Shown: piece by piece, positions 1,684-58,188 of the stretch
Numbering within the stretch: position 1 is the stretch's first letter
How the letters are laid out: each line of letters begins with the position of its first letter
Assembly: GCF_013315695.1 (NCBI RefSeq)
Contig: NZ_CP054353.1
Direction: 5' to 3' (one strand)
Source: Escherichia coli
GTDB lineage: Bacteria; Pseudomonadota; Gammaproteobacteria; Enterobacterales; Enterobacteriaceae
Length of the DNA stretch: 64,000 bases
Program-made: the position numbers and the translations under genes
The notes under the pieces: model-generated
Told to the model about the DNA's origin: nothing
Seen by the model: the letters and a program-made list of their open reading frames with translations, nothing else
Databases searched by the model: none

Positions 1684-4128
1684 TTACACCTTTTCAACCT
1701 GAACAAGGTTTGTATGTGACGGATTCCCCTTAGCGAGAGGAGACGGACGTTGAGTGGTCAGTACGTTGATACAACCGCCCTTATCGACACGTTTTGTATC
1801 CGGGTCATACCAGGCACCTTCACCCAGTGCGACCACACCCGGCATCATTCGTGGCGTCACTTTCGCCTCAATATGAACCTCACCACGATCGTTAAAAATC
1901 CTGACTTTATCGCCGTTGTTGATACCGCGTTTTTGCGCATCAAGCGGGTTGATCCACATTTCCTGACGGCAAGCTGCTTTCAGCACATCAACGTTGCCGT
2001 AAGTTGAGTGAACGCGAGATTTATAGTGGAAACCCGTAAGCTGCAGCGGATACTGTTTGTTCAGCGGATCCTGATAACTTTCAAAGCCCGGCGTGTAGAT
2101 CGGCAGTGGATCGATCACATCACCTTCTGGCAATTCCCAGGTCGCGGCAATGTCAGCCAGCGCCTGCGAATAAATCTCAATTTTCCCCGATGGCGTGGTC
2201 AGTGGATTTGCCTGCGGATCTTCACGGAAAGCTTTATAAGCAACGTGATGCCCTTGTGGGTCGCGCTTTTTAAAGATCCCCTGCTTACGGAACTCTTCAA
2301 ACGTTGGCAGTTCAGGAATCGCTTCCCGCGACTGGGCATACAGATGCCGCATCCACTCTTCCTGGGTACGGCCCTCAGTAAACTGTTGCTCAACGCCAAG
2401 ACGTTTTGCCAGTTCGCTGGTCATTTCATAGATGGTCTTACATTCAAAGCGTGGTTTAATCACCTGATCGTTGAAAATCACGTAAGACATATTCCCGCAG
2501 GATGCATCCAGCGCAAAGTCCATCTGTTCGGAAGCGGTGCAGTCAGGCAGCAGGATGTCAGCGTATTTCGCCGATGAGGTCATGTGGCAGTCGATAACCA
2601 CAATCAGCTCGCACTTCTTATCATCCTGAAGGATTTCATGGGTACGGTTGATTTCAGAATGCTGATTAATCAGGCAGTTACCGGCATAGTTCCAGATCAT
2701 TTTGATCGGCACATCCAGCTTATCTTTCCCGCGCACACCATCACGCAGCGCTGTCATTTCCGGGCCACGTTCAATGGCATCGGTCCACATAAACATCGAA
2801 ATGCTGGTCTGGATCGGGTTTTCGAGGGTCGGCATACGGACAAACGGTAAGCTGTATGAACCTTCACGCGCGCCGCTGTTGCCTCCGTTAATACCAACGT
2901 TACCGGTCAGAATCGCCAGCATCGAGATAGCACGGGTTGCGATTTCACCGTTAGCGTGACGCTGCGGGCCCCATCCCTGGCTGATAAACGCCGGTTTGGT
3001 ACTACCGATTTCACGAGCCAATTTGATGATTTTGTCTGCCGGAACACCAGTGATTTGCGAGGCCCATTCCGGCGTTTTAGCCACGCCATCTGGCCCTTCA
3101 CCCAGAATATAAGCTTTATAGTGACCATTTTTCGGCGCACTGGCTGGCAGTGTTTTCTCGTCGTAGCCAACGCAATATTTATCGAGGAATGCCTGATCCA
3201 CCAGGTTTTCGGTGATCATGACATACGCCAGACCGTTAACCAGTGCGGCATCTGTTCCCGGACGAATAGGGATCCACTCATCTTCGCGCCCGGCACCGGT
3301 GTCGGTATAGCGCGGATCGATGATGATCATGCGAGCATTAGATTTCTGGCGCGCCTGTTCAAGATAGTAAGTCACCCCACCGCCACTCATTCGCGTTTCG
3401 CCAGGGTTATTACCAAACAGCACTACCAGTTTACTGTTTTCGATATCCGACGGGCTGTTACCATCTGCCCAGCCGCCGTAGGTATAGTTCAAACCTTCCG
3501 CAATTTGCGCGGAAGAGTAGTCACCGTAATGGTTCAGATAACCGCCGCAGCAGTTCATCAGGCGAGCGACCAGGGTATTTCCCGGCGGCCAGGAGCGGGT
3601 CATGGTGCCGCCCAGCGTACCGGTACCATAGTTCAGATAGATAGACTCGTTGCCGTACTCTTTGATCAGGCGCTGCATATTGGTCGCGATGATGTCGTAG
3701 GCTTCTTCCCAGCTAATGCGCTCGAATTTGCCTTCACCGCGCGCCCCGACTCGTTTCATCGGATATTTCAGGCGGTCCGGATTGTAGACACGGCGACGCA
3801 TGGAACGCCCACGCAGACAGGCGCGCACCTGGTGCAGGCCGTCATAGTTGTCATCGCCGGTATTATCCGTTTCAACATATTTAATTTCACCGTCCACAAC
3901 GTGCATACGTAGCGGGCAGCGGCTACCACAGTTAACTGTACAGGCGCTCCAGATTACCTTTTCGTCTGACTTTGCCGGAAGGGCACTATCAACAGCGTGC
4001 GCAATCCGACTAAAAGGTAATGTTAATGCGCTGCTGGCCATTGCCAGGCCGCCGATCGCTGTCGTTTTTACCAAACCACGGCGACTCACCTCAGCAGCCA
4101 ATACCGCATCAGGGATTTTCGTTTTCAT
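1684..4128 (-). CDS. dmsA: DMSO reductase catalytic subunit DmsA (molybdopterin oxidoreductase, Tat signal)
   Basis: 814 aa, N-terminal twin-arginine signal (SRRGLVKTTAIGGLAMA), molybdopterin oxidoreductase motifs. Confidence 0.95.
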   Translation of the reverse strand: MKTKIPDAVLAAEVSRRGLVKTTAIGGLAMASSALTLPFSRIAHAVDSALPAKSDEKVIWSACTVNCGSRCPLRMHVVDGEIKYVETDNTGDDNYDGLHQVRACLRGRSMRRRVYNPDRLKYPMKRVGARGEGKFERISWEEAYDIIATNMQRLIKEYGNESIYLNYGTGTLGGTMTRSWPPGNTLVARLMNCCGGYLNHYGDYSSAQIAEGLNYTYGGWADGNSPSDIENSKLVVLFGNNPGETRMSGGGVTYYLEQARQKSNARMIIIDPRYTDTGAGREDEWIPIRPGTDAALVNGLAYVMITENLVDQAFLDKYCVGYDEKTLPASAPKNGHYKAYILGEGPDGVAKTPEWASQITGVPADKIIKLAREIGSTKPAFISQGWGPQRHANGEIATRAISMLAILTGNVGINGGNSGAREGSYSLPFVRMPTLENPIQTSISMFMWTDAIERGPEMTALRDGVRGKDKLDVPIKMIWNYAGNCLINQHSEINRTHEILQDDKKCELIVVIDCHMTSSAKYADILLPDCTASEQMDFALDASCGNMSYVIFNDQVIKPRFECKTIYEMTSELAKRLGVEQQFTEGRTQEEWMRHLYAQSREAIPELPTFEEFRKQGIFKKRDPQGHHVAYKAFREDPQANPLTTPSGKIEIYSQALADIAATWELPEGDVIDPLPIYTPGFESYQDPLNKQYPLQLTGFHYKSRVHSTYGNVDVLKAACRQEMWINPLDAQKRGINNGDKVRIFNDRGEVHIEAKVTPRMMPGVVALGEGAWYDPDTKRVDKGGCINVLTTQRPSPLAKGNPSHTNLVQVEKV

Positions 4129-8357: not shown

Positions 8358-8588
8358 ATGAGAACAGCCGAATCACCCGGCAGAAAAATAACCGCCAGAC
8401 CAGCTAACCATCATGCACATATCAGCATTGCCGCAAGAAAAGCCGAGCGTGCGCATATCTGCGAATTGCTGCATGACCTGGTTAACACAGCGAGAGAGAA
8501 GCACACCTCCCCGGAGGAAACCTGTTCATCCATTGAACGACTGATTGCAATACTCGCCAACCCAGACGAACTGAAGGGGTGCGCATAA
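8358..8588 (+). CDS. early-operon hypothetical protein (76 aa)
   Basis: ATG at 8358 with AGGAG RBS; stop overlaps the exonuclease start (TAATG). Confidence 0.55.
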   Translation: MRTAESPGRKITARPANHHAHISIAARKAERAHICELLHDLVNTAREKHTSPEETCSSIERLIAILANPDELKGCA

Positions 8589-9169
8589 TGAACCATCTCA
8601 TGATTGACACCGAAACACTGGGTAACGGACCGGACGCAGCCATATTCACGATTGGGGCGGTGTTTTTCGACCCGTTCACCGGAAAGCTGGGCAAGCAGTT
8701 TGAGAAATTCATCGACCCGGTGGATTCAGAACGCAACGGCGGAACCGTCAATGCAGCCACCGCTGTATGGTGGGCCGGACAATCCGTGGAAGCCAGAGCC
8801 TGCCTGCGCAACGCAGATGGAACAGAGCTGGCAGCAGTGACCGAATTTCTGGCGTTCATTTCACGCAATATGCATGACGAAAGCCCGGGCAATTCACTGA
8901 ACATATGGTGTAAGGGCGCATCCTTCGATTTCCCGATCCTGAAATCCGCCATAACACGCACAGCCGGAGAAAAAAGCATCCCCTGGTGCTACTGGAACGA
9001 GCGCTGTATGCGCCCGCTTATCGCCATGGCTGAATCAACTGGATGGAAAATGCCAGGCAGATCAGGCAAAGAGACCATTGCTCACACCGCGCTGGGCGAC
9101 GCCGTTTACCAGGCAAAGGTCGTGTCAGAAATCTGGCAGCGCTTCACAACACCATTCCTGAACATATGA
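8588..9169 (+). CDS. 3'-5' exonuclease, DEDD (DnaQ-like) family
   Basis: 193 aa; MIDTETLG (Exo I D-x-E) and HTALGDA (Exo III) motifs. Confidence 0.75.
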   Translation: MNHLMIDTETLGNGPDAAIFTIGAVFFDPFTGKLGKQFEKFIDPVDSERNGGTVNAATAVWWAGQSVEARACLRNADGTELAAVTEFLAFISRNMHDESPGNSLNIWCKGASFDFPILKSAITRTAGEKSIPWCYWNERCMRPLIAMAESTGWKMPGRSGKETIAHTALGDAVYQAKVVSEIWQRFTTPFLNI

Positions 9170-9178
9170 GGTGAAGCC

Positions 9179-9406
9179 ATGGTCGCCATCCTGAATGTGT
9201 GTTGCTGCCCCCCCCTGAACGTGGAAAGAAAAGCCCGCGCATCGCTGCGTTTATTCCGCGACGGCGTGCGGAATTTTTCACGCATAAAACCCCACGACTA
9301 CCTGGTAATAAGAATCGGTTTTCGCTGGCGATTGCTGAGCAAAAACAACGGGGCGTCATGGGATTTATTAACGCACGAAACCTATAACAAAGAGGCCGCG
9401 TTATGA
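9179..9406 (+). CDS. hypothetical small protein (75 aa) between exonuclease and Dam
   Basis: ATG with GAGGTG RBS; stop overlaps the dam start (ATGA); odd composition (CCCPP). Confidence 0.35.
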   Translation: MVAILNVCCCPPLNVERKARASLRLFRDGVRNFSRIKPHDYLVIRIGFRWRLLSKNNGASWDLLTHETYNKEAAL

Positions 9407-10347
9407 GCAAAGAACTGTTATCCGGCACGCCGCTTAAATGGGTGGGCGGAAAAAGTCGCATCATGAACACACTGAAGGCGCATCTGCCAGAAGCAGACTG
9501 CCTGGTTGAGCCGTTTGTGGGTGGCGCATCGGTATTCATGAACACCAGTTACAAGCGTTACATCCTGGGTGATTCCAATGGTGCGCTGATTAATTTCTAC
9601 CGGCAAGCCAGGGACAACACCGACAGCCTGATCGACGAGGCGAAAACCCTGTTCCTGAACCACAACAACAGGGGTGACTATCTCATCATTCGCGAAACCT
9701 TTAACGCAGAGAATCATGCCTTCCTGAACAGCAGAACGGGAATAAGCGACCGCCGTGAACTGCGACTGGCCGCCATGTTTTTGTACCTGAACCGACACAG
9801 CTTTAACGGTTTGTTCCGCGTGAACGGAAAAGGCGATTTTAACGTGCCTTTCGGCTGCTACCGCAAGCCCTACTTCCCTGAGCGTGAAATCCGCGCATTT
9901 GCAGACAAGGCAAACAGCACCCGAACGCTGCTTATCCACGCAGATTTTAAGGATACGCTGAACTCTGCCAGTCACCTGTTCGGCATGGGCAACACGCTTT
10001 GCGTGTACTGCGATCCCCCTTACCTGCAATTCAGTGGCCGGGACAATTTTACCGCCTACGGAAAACCATTCGATGAAGACGAGCACGTTCGTCTGAGGGC
10101 AGCGCTCGACCGCCTTTCACAGGAAACGGGCGGCATGACCAGCATCACCATCTCCAATTCCGACACACCGGAAACACGACGCATTTATCGGGGTTACCGG
10201 ATGAACTGCATACAGGCACCACGAAGCGTTGGCGCAAGAACCCGGGAATCAGCACCGGAGGTTATCGCCACCCTGAGATGCATCACATCCGCCTTATCAA
10301 CGGTTCGCACTTCTGCGCCACGAACATGGAAGAAGTACGCGTGCTGA
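9403..10347 (+). CDS. dam: DNA adenine methyltransferase, Dam family
   Basis: PLKWVGGK, LVEPFVGGASVF, FLYLNRHSFNGLFR and DPPY motifs; about 35 extra C-terminal residues versus E. coli Dam. Confidence 0.85.
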   Translation: MSKELLSGTPLKWVGGKSRIMNTLKAHLPEADCLVEPFVGGASVFMNTSYKRYILGDSNGALINFYRQARDNTDSLIDEAKTLFLNHNNRGDYLIIRETFNAENHAFLNSRTGISDRRELRLAAMFLYLNRHSFNGLFRVNGKGDFNVPFGCYRKPYFPEREIRAFADKANSTRTLLIHADFKDTLNSASHLFGMGNTLCVYCDPPYLQFSGRDNFTAYGKPFDEDEHVRLRAALDRLSQETGGMTSITISNSDTPETRRIYRGYRMNCIQAPRSVGARTRESAPEVIATLRCITSALSTVRTSAPRTWKKYAC

Positions 10348-10375: not shown

Positions 10376-10726
10376 ATGGCAGTGATTTATATCGCCGGTC
10401 CCATGACCGGATGCAAAGACCACAACAGGACGGCATTTTGCGTGGAGGACCTGAAACTTCGGTGCGCCGGAAACATCGTTCTTAATCCTGCCGTACTGCC
10501 TGACGGATTAAGCCAGCAGCAGTACATGAGTATTTGTATTCCGATGCTCATGTGCGCCGATGCCATTTACTTACTGGATGGATGGGAAGAGTCCGCTGGC
10601 GCACGGGCTGAGTACGCAATGGCGCTCAAACTGAACATGCATGTGTCATTCCCGGAAAACCGGGCAGCCGGCGAAACCGTCGCGCAGCTGCTTCACAAAT
10701 CAAAAGCCGCACAGGCGACTGAGTAA
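10376..10726 (+). CDS. DUF4406 / nucleoside 2-deoxyribosyltransferase-like protein
   Basis: N-terminal MAVIYIAGPMTG signature and size typical of this fold (from memory); GGAGG RBS. Confidence 0.55.
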   Translation: MAVIYIAGPMTGCKDHNRTAFCVEDLKLRCAGNIVLNPAVLPDGLSQQQYMSICIPMLMCADAIYLLDGWEESAGARAEYAMALKLNMHVSFPENRAAGETVAQLLHKSKAAQATE

Positions 10727-11164
10727 CCGACCGGAGATCGAAACATGATTGCGCGCAGAGCTACCAACCGTCTCACAGGCTTTATTCCAGGCAAGGTTGA
10801 TCATGCACTCCATCACGGGGCTGTCACTTTCCTCAACAAAGGAGAGGCGCGCAATCATGCATTCCGGGGTGAGCATGTGGCGCTGGCTAATCAGTCTTTG
10901 ATAGCTAAGCGCCTGCCATTCAGCCTTTTCAGCTCTGATAGAAAGAGAGGAAGCCATGACCTGCCACACCAGAAAGAGCACCACACTGGCGAAAACAAAC
11001 GTTGCGCTGTCGCAAAAAATGAATGCGGCAACAATCGCAAGGAAAGCGCTAATCCTCAGAACCAAGGAAGCGCGACGGTGGAGAAGGCTTGTCATGTGTT
11101 CAAGCCAGTAGCTGTACCACAGGTCAAAAAGAATTTCGTAATCAGAAGGGAGCTTATCACTCAT
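10700..11164 (-). CDS. membrane protein (about 154 aa, two predicted TM helices) transcribed opposite to the early operon
   Basis: ATG at 11164; MSDKLPSDYEILFDLWYSYW, TM segments LVLRISAFLAIVAAFIF and FVFASVVLFLVWQVMASSL; 3' end overlaps the convergent DUF4406 gene. Confidence 0.5.
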   Translation of the reverse strand: MSDKLPSDYEILFDLWYSYWLEHMTSLLHRRASLVLRISAFLAIVAAFIFCDSATFVFASVVLFLVWQVMASSLSIRAEKAEWQALSYQRLISQRHMLTPECMIARLSFVEESDSPVMECMINLAWNKACETVGSSARNHVSISGRLLSRLCGF

Positions 11165-11347
11165 CAGAAACACCCCGCGTATGCAGACAATCACCAGTTG
11201 CCAGGTGATATTAATTCGCAACATTCTAACCACATCAGCACGCAACACAAAAACCGCTTGCCAGCGCTCGTCGTGTCAGGTTACATTTCCGCTGCACCTC
11301 ATAAAACGGGTGCCGGGTTTCGCAGCCTGCTGACAACCAAAGCGCAC

Positions 11348-11368
11348 AACCGCGCCAGCGGTTTTTTT
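11348..11368 (+). terminator. intrinsic terminator-like hairpin plus T-run (aaccgc-gcca-gcggtt-ttttt) in repeat copy 1
   Basis: 6-bp GC-rich stem followed by T7, nested in outer symmetry cgcacaa...ttgtgcg. Confidence 0.5.
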
Positions 11369-11547
11369 GTGCGTACTGTATTGCCACGTCTTTTTCGCGT
11401 CAGAATTATGGCGGGGCGTACGGGGCCGACTTCGGTCGGGCCGGGTTCTTTGCTAGCCGGTACTGCGAACCTCGTACGTCTCGCCACCCACAGTTTCGCA
11501 GCTCTGGATGGTGAGTTTTCACAACTTACTAGCAAAGAGGCCACACC

Positions 11548-11769
11548 ATGGCAAACCGCAAGCAACAGCGCGCCCGCGCTGAGCGTCTTCACATCCGCAG
11601 CGAAATCAACCGCAGACTTTTCCGCGCAACACGCGTCGCGCAAATCATGCATATCAACATGCTGCATGAGCGCACGCACGCACTATCAAACCGTTACTGC
11701 GCTGCTGTCTTCAGCTATCTCGCCGAAGATCTGGCAGAACTGCAAAGCCTCATCAACCAGCACCGATAA
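11548..11769 (+). CDS. small basic protein (73 aa, MANRKQQRARAERLHIRSEINRR...), repeat copy 1
   Basis: ATG with AAAGAGG RBS; identical copy at 12377-12598. Confidence 0.5.
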   Translation: MANRKQQRARAERLHIRSEINRRLFRATRVAQIMHINMLHERTHALSNRYCAAVFSYLAEDLAELQSLINQHR

Positions 11770-11837
11770 ACCACATCCGGAAGCTATCCCACACCTGCAC
11801 GCGGGAGGCTTCCGCACGTCTGTTACCGGAGGTTCTC

Positions 11838-12009
11838 ATGAAGAGCGTTAAGGGACTTTCAGATATTCAGGACTTCTTTAACTGGATGTGGGCGGTGGAT
11901 CCCCTGCTGGCTTCCCGCCTGAACAACTGGCACGACTATTACCGCCGCGCCTGTAAACAGGCTGCCCGCAGCGTCACCACATACGGGGCTTTCTCCTTCA
12001 CCGTTGACT
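11838..12009 (+). pseudogene. truncated 5' duplicate (about 57 codons) of the 138-aa gene, broken at the duplication junction
   Basis: Same RBS and first 57 codons as 12667-13083, then reads into repeat copy 2. Confidence 0.55.
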
Positions 12010-12176
12010 ATGCAGACAATCACCAGTTGCCAGGTGATATTAATTCGCAACATTCTAACCACATCAGCACGCAACACAAAAACCGCTTGCCAGCGCTCGT
12101 CGTGTCGGGTTACATTTCCGCTGCACCTCATAAAACGGGTGCCGGGTTTCGCAGCCTGCCGACTAGCAAAGCGCAC

Positions 12177-12197
12177 AACCGCGCCAGCGGTTTTTTT
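12177..12197 (+). terminator. same terminator-like hairpin in repeat copy 2
   Basis: Identical sequence at +829. Confidence 0.5.
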
Positions 12198-12376
12198 GTG
12201 CGTACTGTATTGCCACGTCTTTTTCGCGTCAGAATTATGGCGGGGCGTACGGGGCCGACTTCGGTCGGGCCGGGTTCTTTGCTAGCCGGTACTGCGAACC
12301 TCGTACGTCTCGCCACCCACAGTTTCGCAGCTCTGGATGGTGAGTTTTCACAACTTACTAGCAAAGAGGCCACACC

Positions 12377-12598
12377 ATGGCAAACCGCAAGCAACAGCGC
12401 GCCCGCGCTGAGCGTCTTCACATCCGCAGCGAAATCAACCGCAGACTTTTCCGCGCAACACGCGTCGCGCAAATCATGCATATCAACATGCTGCATGAGC
12501 GCACGCACGCACTATCAAACCGTTACTGCGCTGCTGTCTTCAGCTATCTCGCCGAAGATCTGGCAGAACTGCAAAGCCTCATCAACCAGCACCGATAA
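12377..12598 (+). CDS. small basic protein (73 aa), repeat copy 2
   Basis: Identical to 11548-11769. Confidence 0.5.
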   Translation: MANRKQQRARAERLHIRSEINRRLFRATRVAQIMHINMLHERTHALSNRYCAAVFSYLAEDLAELQSLINQHR

Positions 12599-12666
12599 AC
12601 CACATCCGGAAGCTATCCCACACCTGCACGCGGGAGGCTTCCGCACGTCTGTTACCGGAGGTTCTC

Positions 12667-13083
12667 ATGAAGAGCGTTAAGGGACTTTCAGATATTCAGG
12701 ACTTCTTTAACTGGATGTGGGCGGTGGATCCCCTGCTGGCTTCCCGCCTGAACAACTGGCACGACTATTACCGCCGCGCCTGTAAACAGGCTGCCCGCAG
12801 CGTCACCACATACGGGGATTTCTCCTTCACCGTGGACGGTCGTTACCGCGTGGACGTGAAAGGTGATGGTGATGGACTGGGTTTATTTCACATCAACGGC
12901 ACCGACAGTACCGCCATCAGCTGGTCGTCATCAGAGATGGCGCTGGTTCTGGAAATGACAACCCACAGCGTGGCCGTGAAAGGTATATACACCGCAGAAG
13001 GTTTTATCGGCGAATACCAGCGCCTTCTCGTGCTGTACCGCGCGGCGTTTCAGGTGGCAACTGCCGGGGAGTGCGACGCATGA
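12667..13083 (+). CDS. hypothetical protein (138 aa) immediately upstream of and coupled to gene A
   Basis: ATG with GGAGG RBS; stop overlaps the A start (ATGA). Confidence 0.6.
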   Translation: MKSVKGLSDIQDFFNWMWAVDPLLASRLNNWHDYYRRACKQAARSVTTYGDFSFTVDGRYRVDVKGDGDGLGLFHINGTDSTAISWSSSEMALVLEMTTHSVAVKGIYTAEGFIGEYQRLLVLYRAAFQVATAGECDA

Positions 13084-15593
13084 GCGACCATAACGCACAA
13101 CTGGCGTACCCGTGGAACGCCCCGCTACCGGTTATCGATCCTGAAACGTTCGGCAGAGCACAGCCAACCGCATTACGCCAGGCCATTCAGAGCTACATCA
13201 ACGAGGACATTCGCATTGATGCCAGACTGGATGAAGAAACCGTCGCCTTTCTGACAACCACAGACGAAGGGAAGCGAATTAATTCGCACCTTCACCACAA
13301 CGAAGAGCGTCGGATCAGACTGGAAAAACTGGCGCGGCACAAACGCGAGAATCCGCCCACGGTGGTATCGGAAGCCATGGCAGAACTTCGCGCCCTGCCC
13401 TCGTTTCTTGGCAACGCGCTCATTCGTGATCTGGCGCGTTTAAACCGCAAACAGCAAAGCGCCCGCCATGAAGGCGTGAAAAACAACAATACACACGTGG
13501 CTGATAACTTTGTTCGCCGTGGACTGCGCACACGCCTGAAACGCATCGAACAGGTGAATGAATGCTTCGCCACGACGGCATTCAAAGCCACCGCAGCACG
13601 CCATCGCCTTGATGAATTACTCATGCTGCCACAACTCAACCGTGATCAAATTCAGCGCCTTGCCACACTAACGGCGGCGGCATTTTCCACCGAACTGGAA
13701 CGCATATGTGATGAAGTTACTGAGCGGACAGGAAAAGGCGACGATAACCTGTTTACCTGGTTGCTGACTTACCAGCAGCTGGCGCGCATGGCAATAAAAC
13801 TGGGCGTGAACCCACCATACTGGCCGTCACTCGAGATCAGACGTGACCGCCGCACGGCACCAGACCCTGAACTGGTACCGGGCGCGGTAATGCGTATCAC
13901 CTGCGCCACCTGGTGGAACAACCAGCTGCGCCACCTCGCTGATCTCTGGCGGGAGGAATTACTGCGTGCCGCCGGAAGAGTATCGCGCAAGGCATCCCCC
14001 TACATCAGCCATGAGTCACTCCAGGAATTCCGGGAGAAACGCCAGCGCACCCGTGATTTTCTCAAAAGCTGGGACATTGAAAACGAAGACGGTGAACGCC
14101 TGAGCCTGGAGGACGTGTACTGGTCAGGGCTGGGGAATCCGCGCAACCGCCGCAACGAGATGATGGCCTGCGTCAGAGGGATGGAACAGGTCGCCGAATC
14201 GCGTGGTGACTCCGCGTTCTTCGTGACAGTGACCTGCCCTTCCCGCTTTCACAGCGTAAACGAGGACGGCAGCCTGAACCCGAAATACAACGGTGCCACC
14301 GTGCGCGATGCCAGTGATTATCTGGTTTACGACGTCTTTGCAGCTGCAAGAAAAAAACTCAACAAAGAAGGCCTGAGCTGGTACGGGGTGCGCACCGTTG
14401 AGCCACACCATGACGGCACACCGCACTGGCACATGCTGGTATTCACCGCCCCGGACAATGAAGAACGCATCATTGAAATCATGCGTGACGCAGCAATCAA
14501 ATCAGATCGCGCAGAACTGGGGAATGATATTTCTCCGCGCTTCAAGTGCGAAAAAATCGACCCGGCAAAAGGCACACCGGCAAGCTACATCGCAACCTAT
14601 ATTGGCAAGAACCTGGACGCCAGCACCTTTCACGACAATGACCCGAAAACCGGCAAACCTTACGCCGATAAAGAATCGGGAAAAACCATGGCGGAAACCG
14701 TGGAAAACGCCATTGCCTGGGCGAGTCTCCACCGCATCCGGCAGTTCCAGTTCTTCGGTATCCCGCCCCGCCAGGTATGGCGTGAACTCCGCCGCCTTGC
14801 CGGACAAATGGAGCGTAACCCCGCATCACCGAAGCGCCTGGACCATGACGACATTGACGCCATTCTGGCCGCCGCTGACGTGGGGTGTTTTGCCACCTAC
14901 ATCAACCGTCAGGGCGGCGTGCTCATTCCACGCAACCTGTACCTGATCCGCACCGCATACGAAACCGCAGATGAGGCCAACGACTACGGCGAATTCCCGC
15001 AGCGCATCTACGGAATTTGTGCCCCGTCGCTCGGCGAGCGCTACACCATCTGCACCCATCCGGACGAGTGGAAACTGGTCAGAAAAGAAGCGAAAGCCGA
15101 CAACAGCACGGACGAGGATTTTGACGTTGGGGGCGGCTTCGCCGCACCTTGGACTCGTGGCAATAACTGTCGCCATGATGAAAAAACAGACACCGAAGAG
15201 GGTAAAAACCCACCACCGGAAACCAGGAAAGAACAAAAACTGGTCGTCCCGGAAGGTGATTTGGGCGAGTGGTTAAGGTCACTGACCCCCACAGAGCGAA
15301 AACAACTCACCAGGCAGCTGAAAGATGCGCCATCTGACACAAAAACCGTGAAAACCGGCGGCCCCACCACGCCCGATGACGTCATACATGTGCGTACCGC
15401 ATTGCCGCTGGCTGACGTCACCACCACCGTGATCAAGTCGGCACTGAGCACGACGGGCGAGGAGCTGCACAGTGGCGCGGCACTTTCCGTACACAGAGGT
15501 GCACGCGTTCGCCTGCCTGACGGGCGGATTGTGCACTGGGATGAGAAATCACGAAGCCTGGTGGCAGCAGATCAACCGGAGGTGAACCCATGA
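13080..15593 (+). CDS. replication initiation endonuclease, P2 gpA-like (HUH rolling-circle initiator)
   Basis: 837 aa; GTPHWHMLVF H-hydrophobic-H motif; size and position as P2/186 A. Confidence 0.88.
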   Translation: MSDHNAQLAYPWNAPLPVIDPETFGRAQPTALRQAIQSYINEDIRIDARLDEETVAFLTTTDEGKRINSHLHHNEERRIRLEKLARHKRENPPTVVSEAMAELRALPSFLGNALIRDLARLNRKQQSARHEGVKNNNTHVADNFVRRGLRTRLKRIEQVNECFATTAFKATAARHRLDELLMLPQLNRDQIQRLATLTAAAFSTELERICDEVTERTGKGDDNLFTWLLTYQQLARMAIKLGVNPPYWPSLEIRRDRRTAPDPELVPGAVMRITCATWWNNQLRHLADLWREELLRAAGRVSRKASPYISHESLQEFREKRQRTRDFLKSWDIENEDGERLSLEDVYWSGLGNPRNRRNEMMACVRGMEQVAESRGDSAFFVTVTCPSRFHSVNEDGSLNPKYNGATVRDASDYLVYDVFAAARKKLNKEGLSWYGVRTVEPHHDGTPHWHMLVFTAPDNEERIIEIMRDAAIKSDRAELGNDISPRFKCEKIDPAKGTPASYIATYIGKNLDASTFHDNDPKTGKPYADKESGKTMAETVENAIAWASLHRIRQFQFFGIPPRQVWRELRRLAGQMERNPASPKRLDHDDIDAILAAADVGCFATYINRQGGVLIPRNLYLIRTAYETADEANDYGEFPQRIYGICAPSLGERYTICTHPDEWKLVRKEAKADNSTDEDFDVGGGFAAPWTRGNNCRHDEKTDTEEGKNPPPETRKEQKLVVPEGDLGEWLRSLTPTERKQLTRQLKDAPSDTKTVKTGGPTTPDDVIHVRTALPLADVTTTVIKSALSTTGEELHSGAALSVHRGARVRLPDGRIVHWDEKSRSLVAADQPEVNP

Positions 15594-15994: not shown

Positions 15995-16042
15995 CAAAAG
16001 ACCATGAACATGACCAAAAACACCAAACTGAAGGAGCACACC

Positions 16043-16213
16043 ATGAACGACATCAGGAAGATCAGCGACAAAGACCTGAAGAAAATGATTGAGTCGGCGC
16101 AGCAGCTGCTCTCACGACGAAATCCGGTTGTGGAAGAAACATGGTGGGAAAATTTACTGGCAGCGCTGACCGAACTCCGCGAACGCCGGAACAACGAAGG
16201 AGCTGCCAAATGA
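16043..16213 (+). CDS. hypothetical small protein (56 aa)
   Basis: ATG with AAGGAG RBS inside ORF-track frame 16004..16213; stop overlaps the next start. Confidence 0.45.
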   Translation: MNDIRKISDKDLKKMIESAQQLLSRRNPVVEETWWENLLAALTELRERRNNEGAAK

Positions 16214-16548
16214 AGACACCCAGAATGACCGGAAAGGAAATCATTTTACGCTACCTGAAAACGCACGCACGCTTCAGCGCACCAGAGCTGGTTGAAAAAC
16301 TGGGCGTGAAAAGGACCGTCATTAATCAGGCTGCCGGAAAGATGGTGCGCGAAGGGCTGCTGGTTGTGGATGGGTACACGGACAAGATAACGCATTACCG
16401 GAAGCCAACGAAAAAGGAGCTGCGGGAGCTGAAACGACGGGCAGAATGGCAACAGGAGCCGTCAGTAATTGAAGCCTGCAAGCGCAGCGAAATCATGAAG
16501 AGAATTCTGTTTATCTACGGCGCTGGCGAAGAGCTGCCCGTCATCTGA
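16210..16548 (+). CDS. putative winged-helix DNA-binding protein (112 aa)
   Basis: ATGA-coupled; HTH-like segment SAPELVEKLGVKRTVINQAAGKMVREGLLVV. Confidence 0.5.
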   Translation: MKTPRMTGKEIILRYLKTHARFSAPELVEKLGVKRTVINQAAGKMVREGLLVVDGYTDKITHYRKPTKKELRELKRRAEWQQEPSVIEACKRSEIMKRILFIYGAGEELPVI

Positions 16549-16580
16549 ACCCAACAATAAAACCAACACGGGAGACAAAT

Positions 16581-16898
16581 ATGCCAACACAGGTTGCAAC
16601 AGAGGGACGACTGGCAGCAGACCCGAACACAAGGAGAACAGCCAAAGGTACCAGCGTCACAACAGCACAACTGGCGGTATCACTACCCTGCCATGGCGCA
16701 GAACAGCCAACCACAATGTGGCTTTACCTTATCGCGTTCGGGAAGCAACACGAAGAACTGGCAAAACACAGAAAAGGCGATCTGATCCTGGTGCACGGGA
16801 ACTTGCAGGTAAACAGGTATCAGGACAAGTACGAGCAACAGAAAGAGGGCTGGCAGCTGCTGACGCAAAGCATTATCAGCTCAAGAACCGGGCGATGA
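16581..16898 (+). CDS. SSB-like OB-fold protein lacking the acidic C-terminal tail (105 aa)
   Basis: GGGAGA RBS; aligns by eye to the E. coli SSB OB fold ([25 protein letters not shown] vs [59 protein letters not shown] vs [35 protein letters not shown]); ends right after the fold. Confidence 0.6.
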   Translation: [105 protein letters not shown]

Positions 16899-16908
16899 CT
16901 TCACGCAT

Positions 16909-16947
16909 GTTACCCTCAGCAGCGAGGGTAACACAGGATTTCTTTTT
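16909..16947. terminator. bidirectional terminator between the convergent SSB-like gene and membrane-protein gene
   Basis: gttaccctc-agcagc-gagggtaac hairpin followed by a T-run. Confidence 0.6.
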
Positions 16948-17592
16948 TCAGTCAAACCGAAATCGGCCGCTTGTCGCGTATGCATAGGTGACCACCGCAC
17001 CCAGCGCATTCACACGCTTCTTCACATAAATCACATTACCATCCTGATAGTCACCGTATGGGTAGCAAATAAAGATTGTTTTTTGCAAATCAGGATCATC
17101 AACAAATGCCCCTGAACAACTTTTTGAGCTACCGCGACTGTACTCATAGGGAGCGGAATAGAATGAATCTTCACCCGGAAGAAAATATATCAGCGTAACC
17201 AGGAGGGTAAACAGAATCATCCAGGTAAGAAGGCACATACCCGAAAAAAACTTAAGATACGATGTAACCCCGGTAAATTTAGACCGATCAACCAGGTTCT
17301 TTTTCAACAGGCACAGTGAGACAAAAACCGAAAGCACCACAGACACTGAAACAAGGCAGTTTGTCGTGAACGAATAAAGGTAGGTAATTCTGTAAACATC
17401 GTTTCGCCACCAAATAAAAAGAAAAATCCCCCCCAAAACAGAAAGCGTGACAAAAGTTAAATAAGGATATGAGTAATTTTTCACAGTTCTCACCCGGCAA
17501 TACACCACTGATTCAGACAGATGATTATCATCACCACCCACCCCCAAAAATCGCAAGATAAAAAATGCACAAAAGCGCACGAAATTGCACAA
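16948..17592 (-). CDS. AT-rich cargo gene: multi-pass membrane protein (3-4 predicted TM helices) with about 70-aa soluble C-terminal domain; start codon unresolved
   Basis: ORF-track frame starts at TTG; first in-frame ATG gives only 96 aa; a GTG with GGTGA upstream gives about 177 aa; local GC far below flanks; sits where P2 carries old/tin. Confidence 0.5.
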   Translation of the reverse strand: MCNFVRFCAFFILRFLGVGGDDNHLSESVVYCRVRTVKNYSYPYLTFVTLSVLGGIFLFIWWRNDVYRITYLYSFTTNCLVSVSVVLSVFVSLCLLKKNLVDRSKFTGVTSYLKFFSGMCLLTWMILFTLLVTLIYFLPGEDSFYSAPYEYSRGSSKSCSGAFVDDPDLQKTIFICYPYGDYQDGNVIYVKKRVNALGAVVTYAYATSGRFRFD

Positions 17593-17688
17593 TTTTTCTT
17601 ATGTGTTTCATCCCCATTCAGCCCAGTAACGGCGCTGGCTGAGGCCGGTTTGCACGGTGCACGAAAAACGAGGCAATTGCAGCGCGCA

Positions 17689-17707
17689 GGCGACGAGGGA
17701 AGGGCGC
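17689..17707. other. candidate cos cohesive-end region (ggcgacgagggaagggcgc)
   Basis: GC-rich segment between the A-side cargo and the portal gene; resembles the P2 cos sequence as I recall it. Confidence 0.3.
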
Positions 17708-18038
17708 CCGAATTGAGGGGTGGAAGGCAGGTTGCTTTATTTGGGGTCGTATTGCGCGTGATACGCACGCAGTGAAGCCGGTTCTGAAAAAACCACACCG
17801 AAACAGAGTCAGAAAAACAGGCCGCCAGAATGCGTCTGGTTGAGTTTTACGGGGTCGGGATTAAATGCGGAAACATCACACCGCAGGCATGACGCGAAAA
17901 AGAGAAAAACCACAGCAAAACATAATGTTAAATGTTATTGATGAGTTGAGAAGCGAGAGGTGTATTGCGTTGACAGAGCTGGAGAGTCGGGGCATAAATT
18001 TTTTATGCCCCGGCGAAGCAGCCGACAAGCGAAGCGCG

Positions 18039-58100: not shown

Positions 58101-58188
58101 GGTGAGGTGTCCGAGTGGCTGAAGGAGCACGCCTGGAAAGTGTGTATACGGCAACGTATCGGGGGTTCGAATCCCCCCCTCACCGCCA
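58101..58188 (+). tRNA. serW: tRNA-Ser (anticodon GGA)
   Basis: 88 nt GGTGAGGTGTCCGAGTGG...GGTTCGAATCCCCCCCTCACCGCCA with long variable arm; anticodon loop cctGGAaag. Confidence 0.92.

Follow-up and report, generated by a model that had tools for sequence, protein, structure and literature searches.

The window analysed here is a stretch of 64,000 nt of Escherichia coli DNA (contig NZ_CP054353.1). It contains a P2-like prophage, the early lytic operon of which lies on the plus strand. Within this operon, a gene for a 154-aa protein with two predicted transmembrane (TM) helices is found on the minus strand, and it is mirrored by a long open reading frame (ORF) on the plus strand. The features of the locus are as follows:

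10700-11164, minus strand: gene for the 154-aa two-TM protein, probably SLATT-like (phrog_6315); ORF, PHROG match, third-position bias, ratio of nonsynonymous to synonymous substitution rates (dN/dS), and NCBI Prokaryotic Genome Annotation Pipeline (PGAP)
10940-11068, minus strand: hydrophobic hairpin of this protein; hydropathy and AlphaFold2
10705-10720, minus strand: weak terminator-like hairpin and U-run at the 3′ end of the gene; consensus scan only
11165-11250, minus strand: strongly conserved 5′ leader of the gene with its candidate promoter; conservation, hexamers read from the sequence
10745-11851, plus strand: operon-sense ORF of 368 codons, the putative "bridge"; ORF, Shine-Dalgarno (SD) motif, stop purge, dN/dS about 1
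10376-10726, plus strand: DUF4406 gene, part of the early operon; the minus gene has a single TTA codon, which is the TAA stop of the DUF4406 gene
11180-12837, no strand: exact tandem duplication of 2 x 829 bp (11180-12008 and 12009-12837); repeat with a period of 829
11294-11368 and, in copy 2, 12123-12197, plus strand: small RNA isrK; Rfam RF01394, 65.9 bits
11404-11491 and, in copy 2, 12233-12320, plus strand: C4-type antisense RNA; Rfam RF01695, 82.8 bits
11548-11769 and, in copy 2, 12377-12598, plus strand: 73-aa "derepression protein" ORF; ORF, PGAP names in relatives

A preliminary description of the sequence had called a 154-aa, two-TM, ATG-start protein antisense to the early operon, which is borne out by the ORF, the hydropathy, and the AlphaFold2 model. 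It had also noted the overlap with the 3′ end of the DUF4406 gene, which comprises 27 nt in a tail-to-tail arrangement. The statement that the gene ends beside the duplication needs to be modified: it does adjoin the duplication, but with its 5′ end, and position 11180 is the duplication boundary, while the gene starts at 11164, so that the edge of the duplication is 16 nt upstream of the ATG.

In the ORF list, the minus frame is open from 11248 to 10700 and would encode 182 aa if begun at a GTG. The internal ATG at 11164-11162 yields the 154-aa protein, MSDKLPSDYEILF...SRLCGF, with a TGA stop codon at 10702-10700, and it is preceded at a distance of 6 nt by the SD-like motif GGGGTG (11176-11171). 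This ATG is supported as the start because distant homologues begin with the aligned methionine, because the upstream region shows no codon periodicity (variable sites per codon position 15/20/15 in the region 330-85 nt upstream of the ATG versus 29/16/48 in the gene), and because PGAP predicts the same 154-aa product (WP_225374594.1). For the first two reasons, N-terminally extended versions of 174, 182 (from GTG 11248), 215, and 263 aa were rejected as artefacts. One E. coli copy of the gene (protein P0006, 174 aa) is locally out of frame, with RLLPHSFFADSA and WLPLFLSELKRLNGR as the affected stretches of its translation, which indicates frameshifts, due either to a pseudogene or to sequencing errors.

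To decide which strand is coding, use could be made of the codon alignment of the two frames: position 3 of the one is position 1 of the other, so that they make opposite predictions about where substitutions fall. Substitutions were tallied per codon position of the minus frame in a codon alignment of 58 homologous loci. In each divergence bin below 20%, 64-74% of them are at position 3, 21-25% at position 1, and 5-12% at position 2. The dN/dS values were calculated for ten pairs with the Nei-Gojobori method (NG86), whereby identical columns were read on both strands. The values are 0.07-0.22 for the minus frame and 0.75-3.8, i.e. about 1, for the mirrored plus frame. Furthermore, the minus-frame products of the window, phage Fels-2, and Yersinia phage vB_YenM_42.18 match phrog_6315 with E values of 8e-66, 2.5e-77, and 4e-44, respectively, while the plus-frame products of the same three have no PHROG match. 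The minus strand is thus the protein-coding strand and is under purifying selection, and 10700-11164 is almost certainly a real gene.

The preliminary description had preferred the minus strand and had kept in view that the plus frame might prove to be the conserved one, in which case the plus ORF would be the true early-operon gene and the minus ORF merely its shadow. The plus ORF is indeed longer, has the orientation of the operon, and possesses an SD motif and an ATG, and the GenBank annotators chose that strand in both phages. As far as protein conservation is concerned, this alternative is refuted, and it is extremely improbable. Substitutions pile up at position 1 of the plus frame, its dN/dS is about 1 or higher, only the minus products belong to a family (E 1e-44 to 1e-77), and relatives outside operons retain the intact minus protein even though their plus frame is stop-rich. 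For Fels-2 and the Yersinia phage, the wrong strand has therefore been called in the published annotations, and E. coli records list three different protein lengths; the evolutionary test settles both the coding strand and the start of the membrane gene. In GenBank/RefSeq, the mirror ORF is annotated and the membrane gene is omitted in Fels-2 (STM2733.1; locus L004, 3408-3812; L numbers denote the loci compared here) and in vB_YenM_42.18 (vBYenM4218_008; L005, 3309-3974).

The plus ORF had been regarded as spurious. This holds true for its protein, since its own sequence is unconstrained and it is not a conserved protein, but not for the frame, which is depleted of stop codons, has an SD motif and an ATG, and abuts the operon genes. 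The plus frame can contain a stop codon only where the minus gene uses TTA, CTA, or TCA. When seven deeply diverged lineages (which share 20-65% aa identity with one another) are pooled, the counts are 0/94 for CTA (P 7e-9), 0/44 for TCA (P 1.6e-4), and 2/26 for TTA (P 8e-9), and one of the two TTA codons is the stop codon of the DUF4406 gene. The comparison usage in these lineages is 18% for other four-fold A-ending codons and 63% for two-fold ones, and GTA, ATA, ACA, GCA, CCA, GGA, and CGA are used at 10-30%.

Neighbouring genes at the same loci contain 4.45 antisense-stop codons per 150 codons, and only 3 of the 67 neighbours of at least 130 codons have none or one. For eleven P2-like lineages, the counts in the target gene are 0, 0, 0, 0, 0, 0, 1, 1, 1, 2, and 3, compared to about 50 expected in total. 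Low third-position A content was considered as the cause and was rejected, because a model based on each gene's own third-position A content predicts 4-10 antisense-stop codons per gene. The stop-free gap in the plus frame coincides with the extent of the gene, and outside of it stop codons occur every 30-80 nt. An E. coli allele whose protein is only 35% identical has 0/163 antisense-stop codons, and no stop interrupts its plus frame over the 457 codons between the DUF4406 stop and the next gene. The count is 0/153 at L061, which belongs to an unrelated Cro/CII-type phage. Synonymous sites are saturated between the lineages (dS 0.5 to >2.5), so that the open state must be actively maintained, and it is very probable that selection keeps the plus frame open.

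The start signals of the plus ORF point in the same direction. In the window, a GGAG (10733-10736) is located 8 nt ahead of its ATG. SD-like motifs also precede plus ORFs elsewhere (GGGGAGGAAG, GGAGGG, AAGGGGTG, and AGGGGGAAGGG), which start with ATG or GTG and mostly begin just beyond the stop codon of the minus gene. The window ORF begins 19 nt past the DUF4406 stop and ends 14 nt into the next ORF (ATG 11838), and the gaps to the operon neighbours at L020 are 21 and 15 nt. The maintained openness, the SD motif and ATG, and the tight packing against the operon neighbours make it most likely that the plus frame is translated. In the window, one and the same frame holds the DUF4406 gene and the plus ORF, with only the TAA and five sense codons between them, so that read-through would fuse them; in the 35%-identical allele of L095 they do not likewise share a frame.

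Long, fully overlapping, codon-aligned ORFs on opposite strands, each with its own start signals, have been described for enterohaemorrhagic E. coli and Pseudomonas (PMC9927249, PMC8850804). The present pair also has both frames open across the whole overlap beyond chance expectation. It differs in that purifying selection is seen on the minus product only, and the other partner is unconstrained (dN/dS about 1), with selection on its openness alone. In addition, the overlap recurs in deeply diverged alleles, and the two strands would serve opposed life-cycle programmes.

The membrane protein itself has a Kyte-Doolittle hydropathy above 1.6 without a break at window centres 40-67 (residues about 32-75; 19-residue windows). 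TM1 comprises residues about 33-51 (11012-11068), followed by the turn CDSAT and by TM2 at residues about 55-75 (10940-11002), and both outer flanks of the hairpin contain Arg/Lys. An N-in/C-in hairpin in the inner membrane with a cytoplasmic helical tail of roughly 80 residues is predicted. An AlphaFold2 model was built from a 15-sequence alignment and has a pLDDT of 83.4 and a pTM of 0.73; helices 8-50 and 53-93 form the hairpin and are followed by three short C-terminal helices. Foldseek retrieved 72 matches at E <= 1e-3 from AFDB50, including dozens of models named SLATT or DUF4231 (probability 1.00, TM-score 0.7-0.87, E 1e-7 to 1e-4). The top matches in a viral structure library are likewise SLATT proteins, but weak. 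No relative of the protein was found in the PDB, neither by sequence search nor with Foldseek.

SLATT proteins, defined here according to PMC9226505 and the DRT10 preprint, span the membrane with two to three helices and are predicted to form pores as effectors of defence systems, e.g. CBASS, RADAR, and systems based on reverse transcriptases (PMC9226505; bioRxiv 10.64898/2026.04.29.721553). The resemblance to these SMODS/SLOG-associating 2TM effectors (SLATT_1-6, DUF4231, NF033632/NF033634) includes a length of ~150 aa, a TM hairpin with flanking cytoplasmic helices, the superposition of the models, weak but recurrent matches to hidden Markov models (HMMs) over the hairpin, and the occurrence on mobile, conflict-associated DNA. 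At the sequence level, the window protein and its relatives stay below every SLATT HMM cut-off. The window protein yielded only DUF6239 in Pfam (E 0.005, not significant), no match in NCBIfam, and 0 matches in PADLOC-DB v2. Searches with up to 42 relatives against Pfam, NCBIfam, and PADLOC gave nothing significant, and the best Pfam value was that for SLATT_fungal (E 0.011). Sub-threshold matches to NCBIfam SLATT_4 in family members have E values of 2e-4 to 0.12 and 12-21 bits versus a cut-off of 55, and the CBASS 2TM-effector and RT-associated-SLATT models of PADLOC match other members with E 0.015-0.04. Such matches, also to SLATT_1, recur across members and cover the hairpin. A homology search with the family profile retrieved no Pfam-annotated proteins, and hence no sequence bridge to SLATT. 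The protein is thus not placed in any curated SLATT family; judged by the modelled fold, it is probably SLATT-like.

The family has been recorded already, as phrog_6315 and as hypothetical proteins, but is uncharacterized. The window protein matches phrog_6315 over its full length (E 8.2e-66, residues 6-154 on positions 2-149 of the 152 of the profile), as do the homologues of Fels-2 and the Yersinia phage; the category is "unknown function", so that the assignment carries no functional knowledge. A profile search of 1.84 billion representative proteins yielded 345 clusters at 50% identity (E <= 1e-3), nearly all of them single-domain proteins of 150-165 aa. Family motifs are F-x-[LI]-x-Y-S-Y-x-L-E before the hairpin and A-x-x-Q-A-x-x-Y after it, and additionally [ED]-x-D-S, N-P-A-x-x-R-A, and a C-terminal A-G-x-x-P-[RK].

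Homologues exist in other prophages and phages, i.e. Fels-2, vB_YenM_42.18, and Elizabethkingia phage EKP1, and at more than 80 IMG/VR loci, which were searched with a sub-clade alignment; a scan of genome contigs gave only 2 loci. The antisense position is found repeatedly. The homologue lies antisense in the early operon after apl-cII-fil in Fels-2 and antisense before gpB in the Yersinia phage, and it is antisense in the early operon of the 186-like IMG/VR contig L075 and of the Cro/CII/S24-repressor-type prophage at L061. Relatives also occur in other settings, one of them adjoining genes of the Nmad2 and DpnII-MboI families. The window allele is rare and was found in 24 of 5426 complete E. 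coli genomes. In E. coli 2013C-3033 (L095, 2969-3460) the backbone DNA is ~89% identical to that of the window, but the protein encoded at the same spot is only 35% identical, and strain DG351-2 (L100, 228-710) has this allele type as well. This amounts to cassette-like allelic replacement, a kind of turnover that conflict genes typically show.

In almost every lineage except that of the window, a proline-rich micro-ORF in the orientation of the membrane gene ends 3-10 nt before its ATG (L004 3405-3485 in Fels-2, L005 ~3373-3492, L075 ~3887-3967, and most others). It encodes 25-40 aa with the core F-H-x-L-[HP]-x-P-A-P-x-P and a charged tail; the Fels-2 peptide is MSDSDNFHVLPRPAPAPKPEPGQDKK. 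Its last codons provide the SD motif of the SLATT-like gene, and it is the only co-oriented partner of that gene in the relatives. Substitutions per codon position are 22/21/54, and this third-position bias shows that the micro-ORF is real; the peptides have no PHROG match. It may act as a polyproline stalling leader or else encode a small partner protein. The canonical unit accordingly consists of the micro-ORF and the SLATT-like gene, and the window allele, in which no micro-ORF is present at 11165-11330, either lost it or never had it.

Among ten E. coli and IMG/VR sequences, the 84 nt that precede the ATG hardly vary, with 2 variable columns versus ~20% in the gene and farther upstream. 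They are part of a leader with the candidate promoter TTGTGT (-35, 11250-11245) and TAGAAT (-10, 11228-11223), separated by a 16-nt spacer. Only 7 nt beyond it begins a promoter-like site for isrK on the plus strand (TTGCCA-18-TACATT, 11258-11287), so that the membrane gene and isrK may be divergently transcribed from back-to-back promoters. Lineages of the Fels-2 type have a TG-extended -10 hexamer (TAGACT, TAGAAT, or TATATT) in front of the micro-ORF, at a distance of ~131 nt upstream from the ATG.

Small inner-membrane proteins for exclusion or abortive infection are encoded by several prophages, e.g. RexB of lambda, SieB of P22, and gp15 of HK97, and prophage exclusion proteins often have their own promoter, independent of the lytic operons. 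No sequence or family relationship to these three proteins was found, the PHROG category being "unknown function" and PADLOC giving no match. The preliminary description had raised the idea of a lysogenic-conversion or exclusion gene, which is plausible and is strengthened by the SLATT-like fold of the model. The interpretation that we favour, with a probability of roughly 0.6, is that a SLATT-like exclusion or abortive-infection protein is expressed in the lysogen and that its gene is crossed by a translated, sequence-indifferent bridge ORF of the lytic operon.

According to this interpretation, the early promoter would be repressed in the lysogen, the membrane gene would be transcribed from its own promoter, and the SLATT-like protein would perturb or gate the membrane and thereby exclude other phages or abort their infection. 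Upon induction, convergent early transcription and translation would silence the membrane gene, and the plus ORF would be translated as a bridge that holds ribosomes on the early mRNA over the antisense insert of ~0.5 kb and, in the window, also carries them over the isrK terminator and C4. The downstream replication genes would thus be shielded from polarity in an operon without a known antiterminator. Such an alternating use of the strands, i.e. the minus strand for an effector in the lysogen and the plus strand as a "ribosome bridge" in the lytic cycle, is a tentative model, at slightly less than even odds. The same applies to anti-polarity as the reason for which the bridge is translated, and a function of the 154-aa protein in defence or exclusion is, taken by itself, possible but somewhat more doubtful.

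Several observations weigh against this interpretation. No SLATT HMM is significant for the window protein, and no sensor partner gene adjoins it, unlike in characterized SLATT systems, where nucleotide-signalling, reverse-transcriptase, or other sensor genes are adjacent; the neighbours here are early-operon genes on the opposite strand. Further differences to these systems are the antisense placement in a phage early operon and the micro-ORF of most lineages. The window allele has no micro-ORF and may therefore be regulated in another way or represent a reduced variant. Its candidate promoter is weak, with only 3/6 matches in the -35 hexamer and a score under the threshold of the promoter scan. 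In addition, the bridge is not universal. In the "GDLPR" clade there are 5-15 antisense stops, even in members whose gene is flanked by ORFs of the opposite orientation, and within the Fels-2 clade the numbers are 1 (Fels-2), 3 (L035), and 6 in L075, which is clearly embedded in a 186-like operon and encodes a protein 72% identical to that of Fels-2. Translation across the insert can therefore not be strictly indispensable. Bridged and unbridged lineages do not differ in the C/G composition of their operon-sense RNA, so that the rationale of protection from Rho is without compositional support; C-rich, G-poor (rut-like) RNA was accordingly dismissed as a feature that distinguishes bridged lineages.

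Two alternatives concern the plus frame. It could encode a second functional protein, e.g. a regulator or antidote of the membrane protein, and such dual coding would agree with the stop purge, the start signals, and the operon packing, all of which suggest translation, as well as with the antisense overlapping genes of E. coli and Pseudomonas mentioned above. However, the amino-acid sequence of the plus frame is unconstrained, synonymous minus-frame sites are saturated when lineages are compared, and the plus product, which is hydrophilic and basic (poor in hydrophobicity and rich in A/K/R/H/N), has no family match, so that we regard dual coding as improbable. The opposite view is that openness is a by-product of codon bias or ancestry and reflects no selection for translation. 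Antisense frames in codon alignment are often long, several relatives do not have an open plus frame, and the lineages are only partly independent. On the other hand, the depletion is confined to CTA, TCA, and TTA while other A-ending codons are in normal use, it exceeds what the A content of the genes predicts, and it is absent from neighbouring genes. It persists despite synonymous saturation and recurs in the 35%-identical allele and in the unrelated Cro/CII-type phage, and the counts are bimodal, with 0-1 in bridged lineages versus 5-15 in the "GDLPR" clade and the Fels-2 clade intermediate. A by-product is therefore unlikely.

The remaining alternative accepts the minus gene as real but assigns it to the phage's own cycle. 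It might be a modulator of membrane potential or lysis timing, an inhibitor of host growth, as with the neighbouring early genes of the fil/kil type, or a stabilizer of lysogeny. The position in the regulatory/early region next to cII/fil in Fels-2-type phages speaks for such a role, as do the missing sensor partner and the missing PADLOC match. It is at odds with an orientation that opposes the lytic transcript in diverse phages, with the SLATT-like fold, with the extreme allelic divergence within a conserved backbone, and with the sporadic occurrence of this allele. All four are more readily expected of an accessory conflict gene than of a core function, and a role in the phage's own cycle appears rather unlikely. 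As to a holin or lysis protein, the gene does not lie in a lysis cassette next to an endolysin gene but in the early replication region, on the opposite strand between the Dam/DUF4406 genes and gpA.

The literature search retrieved nothing on STM2734 and nothing relevant on the combination of antisense overlap, Rho-dependent polarity, and prophages. As far as the literature was searched, the SLATT-like assignment, the micro-ORF cassette, the conserved antisense placement, and above all the mirror frame kept open by selection have not been described. A widespread phage family of SLATT-like, stand-alone effectors with hypervariable alleles, inserted backwards in early operons, would be a plausible new class of exclusion or abortive-infection proteins. 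The purge of antisense stops represents selection on an opposite frame without constraint on its protein. Provided that the plus frame is indeed translated, the case illustrates how a counter-oriented gene can be accommodated in a phage operon that has no antiterminator, and it would be a warning that some "shadow ORFs" are kept for translation itself and not for their product. If the bridge is true, the synonymous choice of the membrane gene (no CTA, TCA, or TTA) is set by the opposite strand; to our knowledge, such a constraint is not known for accessory genes of phages.

Residues 1-140 of the plus ORF mirror the membrane gene and residues 180-270 cross isrK and C4. The part past the membrane gene (11165-11851), which has a weak Phage_ASH match (PF10554, E 2.7e-4), runs through both RNA genes, and the downstream two-thirds of the ORF are therefore not a conventional protein gene. 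The intrinsic terminator of isrK was found by a scan at 11348-11363. The module of isrK, C4, and the "derepression protein" is present in 1277 of 5426 complete E. coli genomes. A plus frame of ~210-218 codons is open in every module variant examined, from the upstream stop through both RNA genes to the downstream start (L096 2454-3110, L097 1480-2127, L099 1454-2110, L100 1500-2132; in the window module 11258-11851). It is open also without the membrane gene, i.e. in P88, ST131, O157:H7, strain 190693, and DG351-2. The variants are 83-90% identical, and their open frame is thus weaker evidence. PGAP sometimes names the module-spanning frame "ash family protein"; this family may be a translation of RNA genes, or the module frame may be translated.

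Modules of this type are known from immI of P1/P7, where the c4 antisense RNA controls an antirepressor and the P1-type module acts via translation-coupled transcription. The likeness to immI and to the Gifsy isrK of Salmonella consists in the isrK, C4, and "derepression protein" module that adjoins the membrane gene. The membrane gene itself is located outside of the module, and P88, ST131, and O157:H7 prophages have the module without the gene.

Each copy of the tandem duplication contains the promoter region of the minus gene, isrK, C4, the 73-aa ORF, and the initial 172 nt of a 138-aa ORF. Of the 24 E. coli genomes that have the gene, only those of strains G1/2, G6/7, and G8 show the duplication, which implies that it is recent. 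It copies the candidate promoter but not the gene and is incidental to the latter. Since 829 is 1 mod 3, the junction lets the truncated 138-aa ORF (ATG 11838) run on, in phase, into the frame that spans the module in copy 2. An ORF of 11838-12680 results, and the operon remains covered by ORFs from end to end.

Other genes mark the plus strand as the early lytic operon or belong to it:

8579-9169, plus strand: 3′-5′ exonuclease, early operon
9403-10347, plus strand: Dam methylase, early operon
13071-15593, plus strand: gpA-like replication endonuclease, which marks the plus strand as the early lytic operon

An ORF of 75 aa (9179-9406, plus strand) lies between the genes for the exonuclease and Dam; its equivalent in relatives is named "ParE family toxin-like protein" by PGAP. 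The interval between gpA and the portal gene is a P2 hotspot for anti-phage systems (PMC9122126). In the window it includes a low-GC stretch (0.48) at 16000-18000, within which an ORF on the minus strand (16948-17592) encodes 214 aa with several hydrophobic segments. Beyond the prophage, a tRNA-Ser (GGA) gene is located at 58101-58188 on the plus strand.

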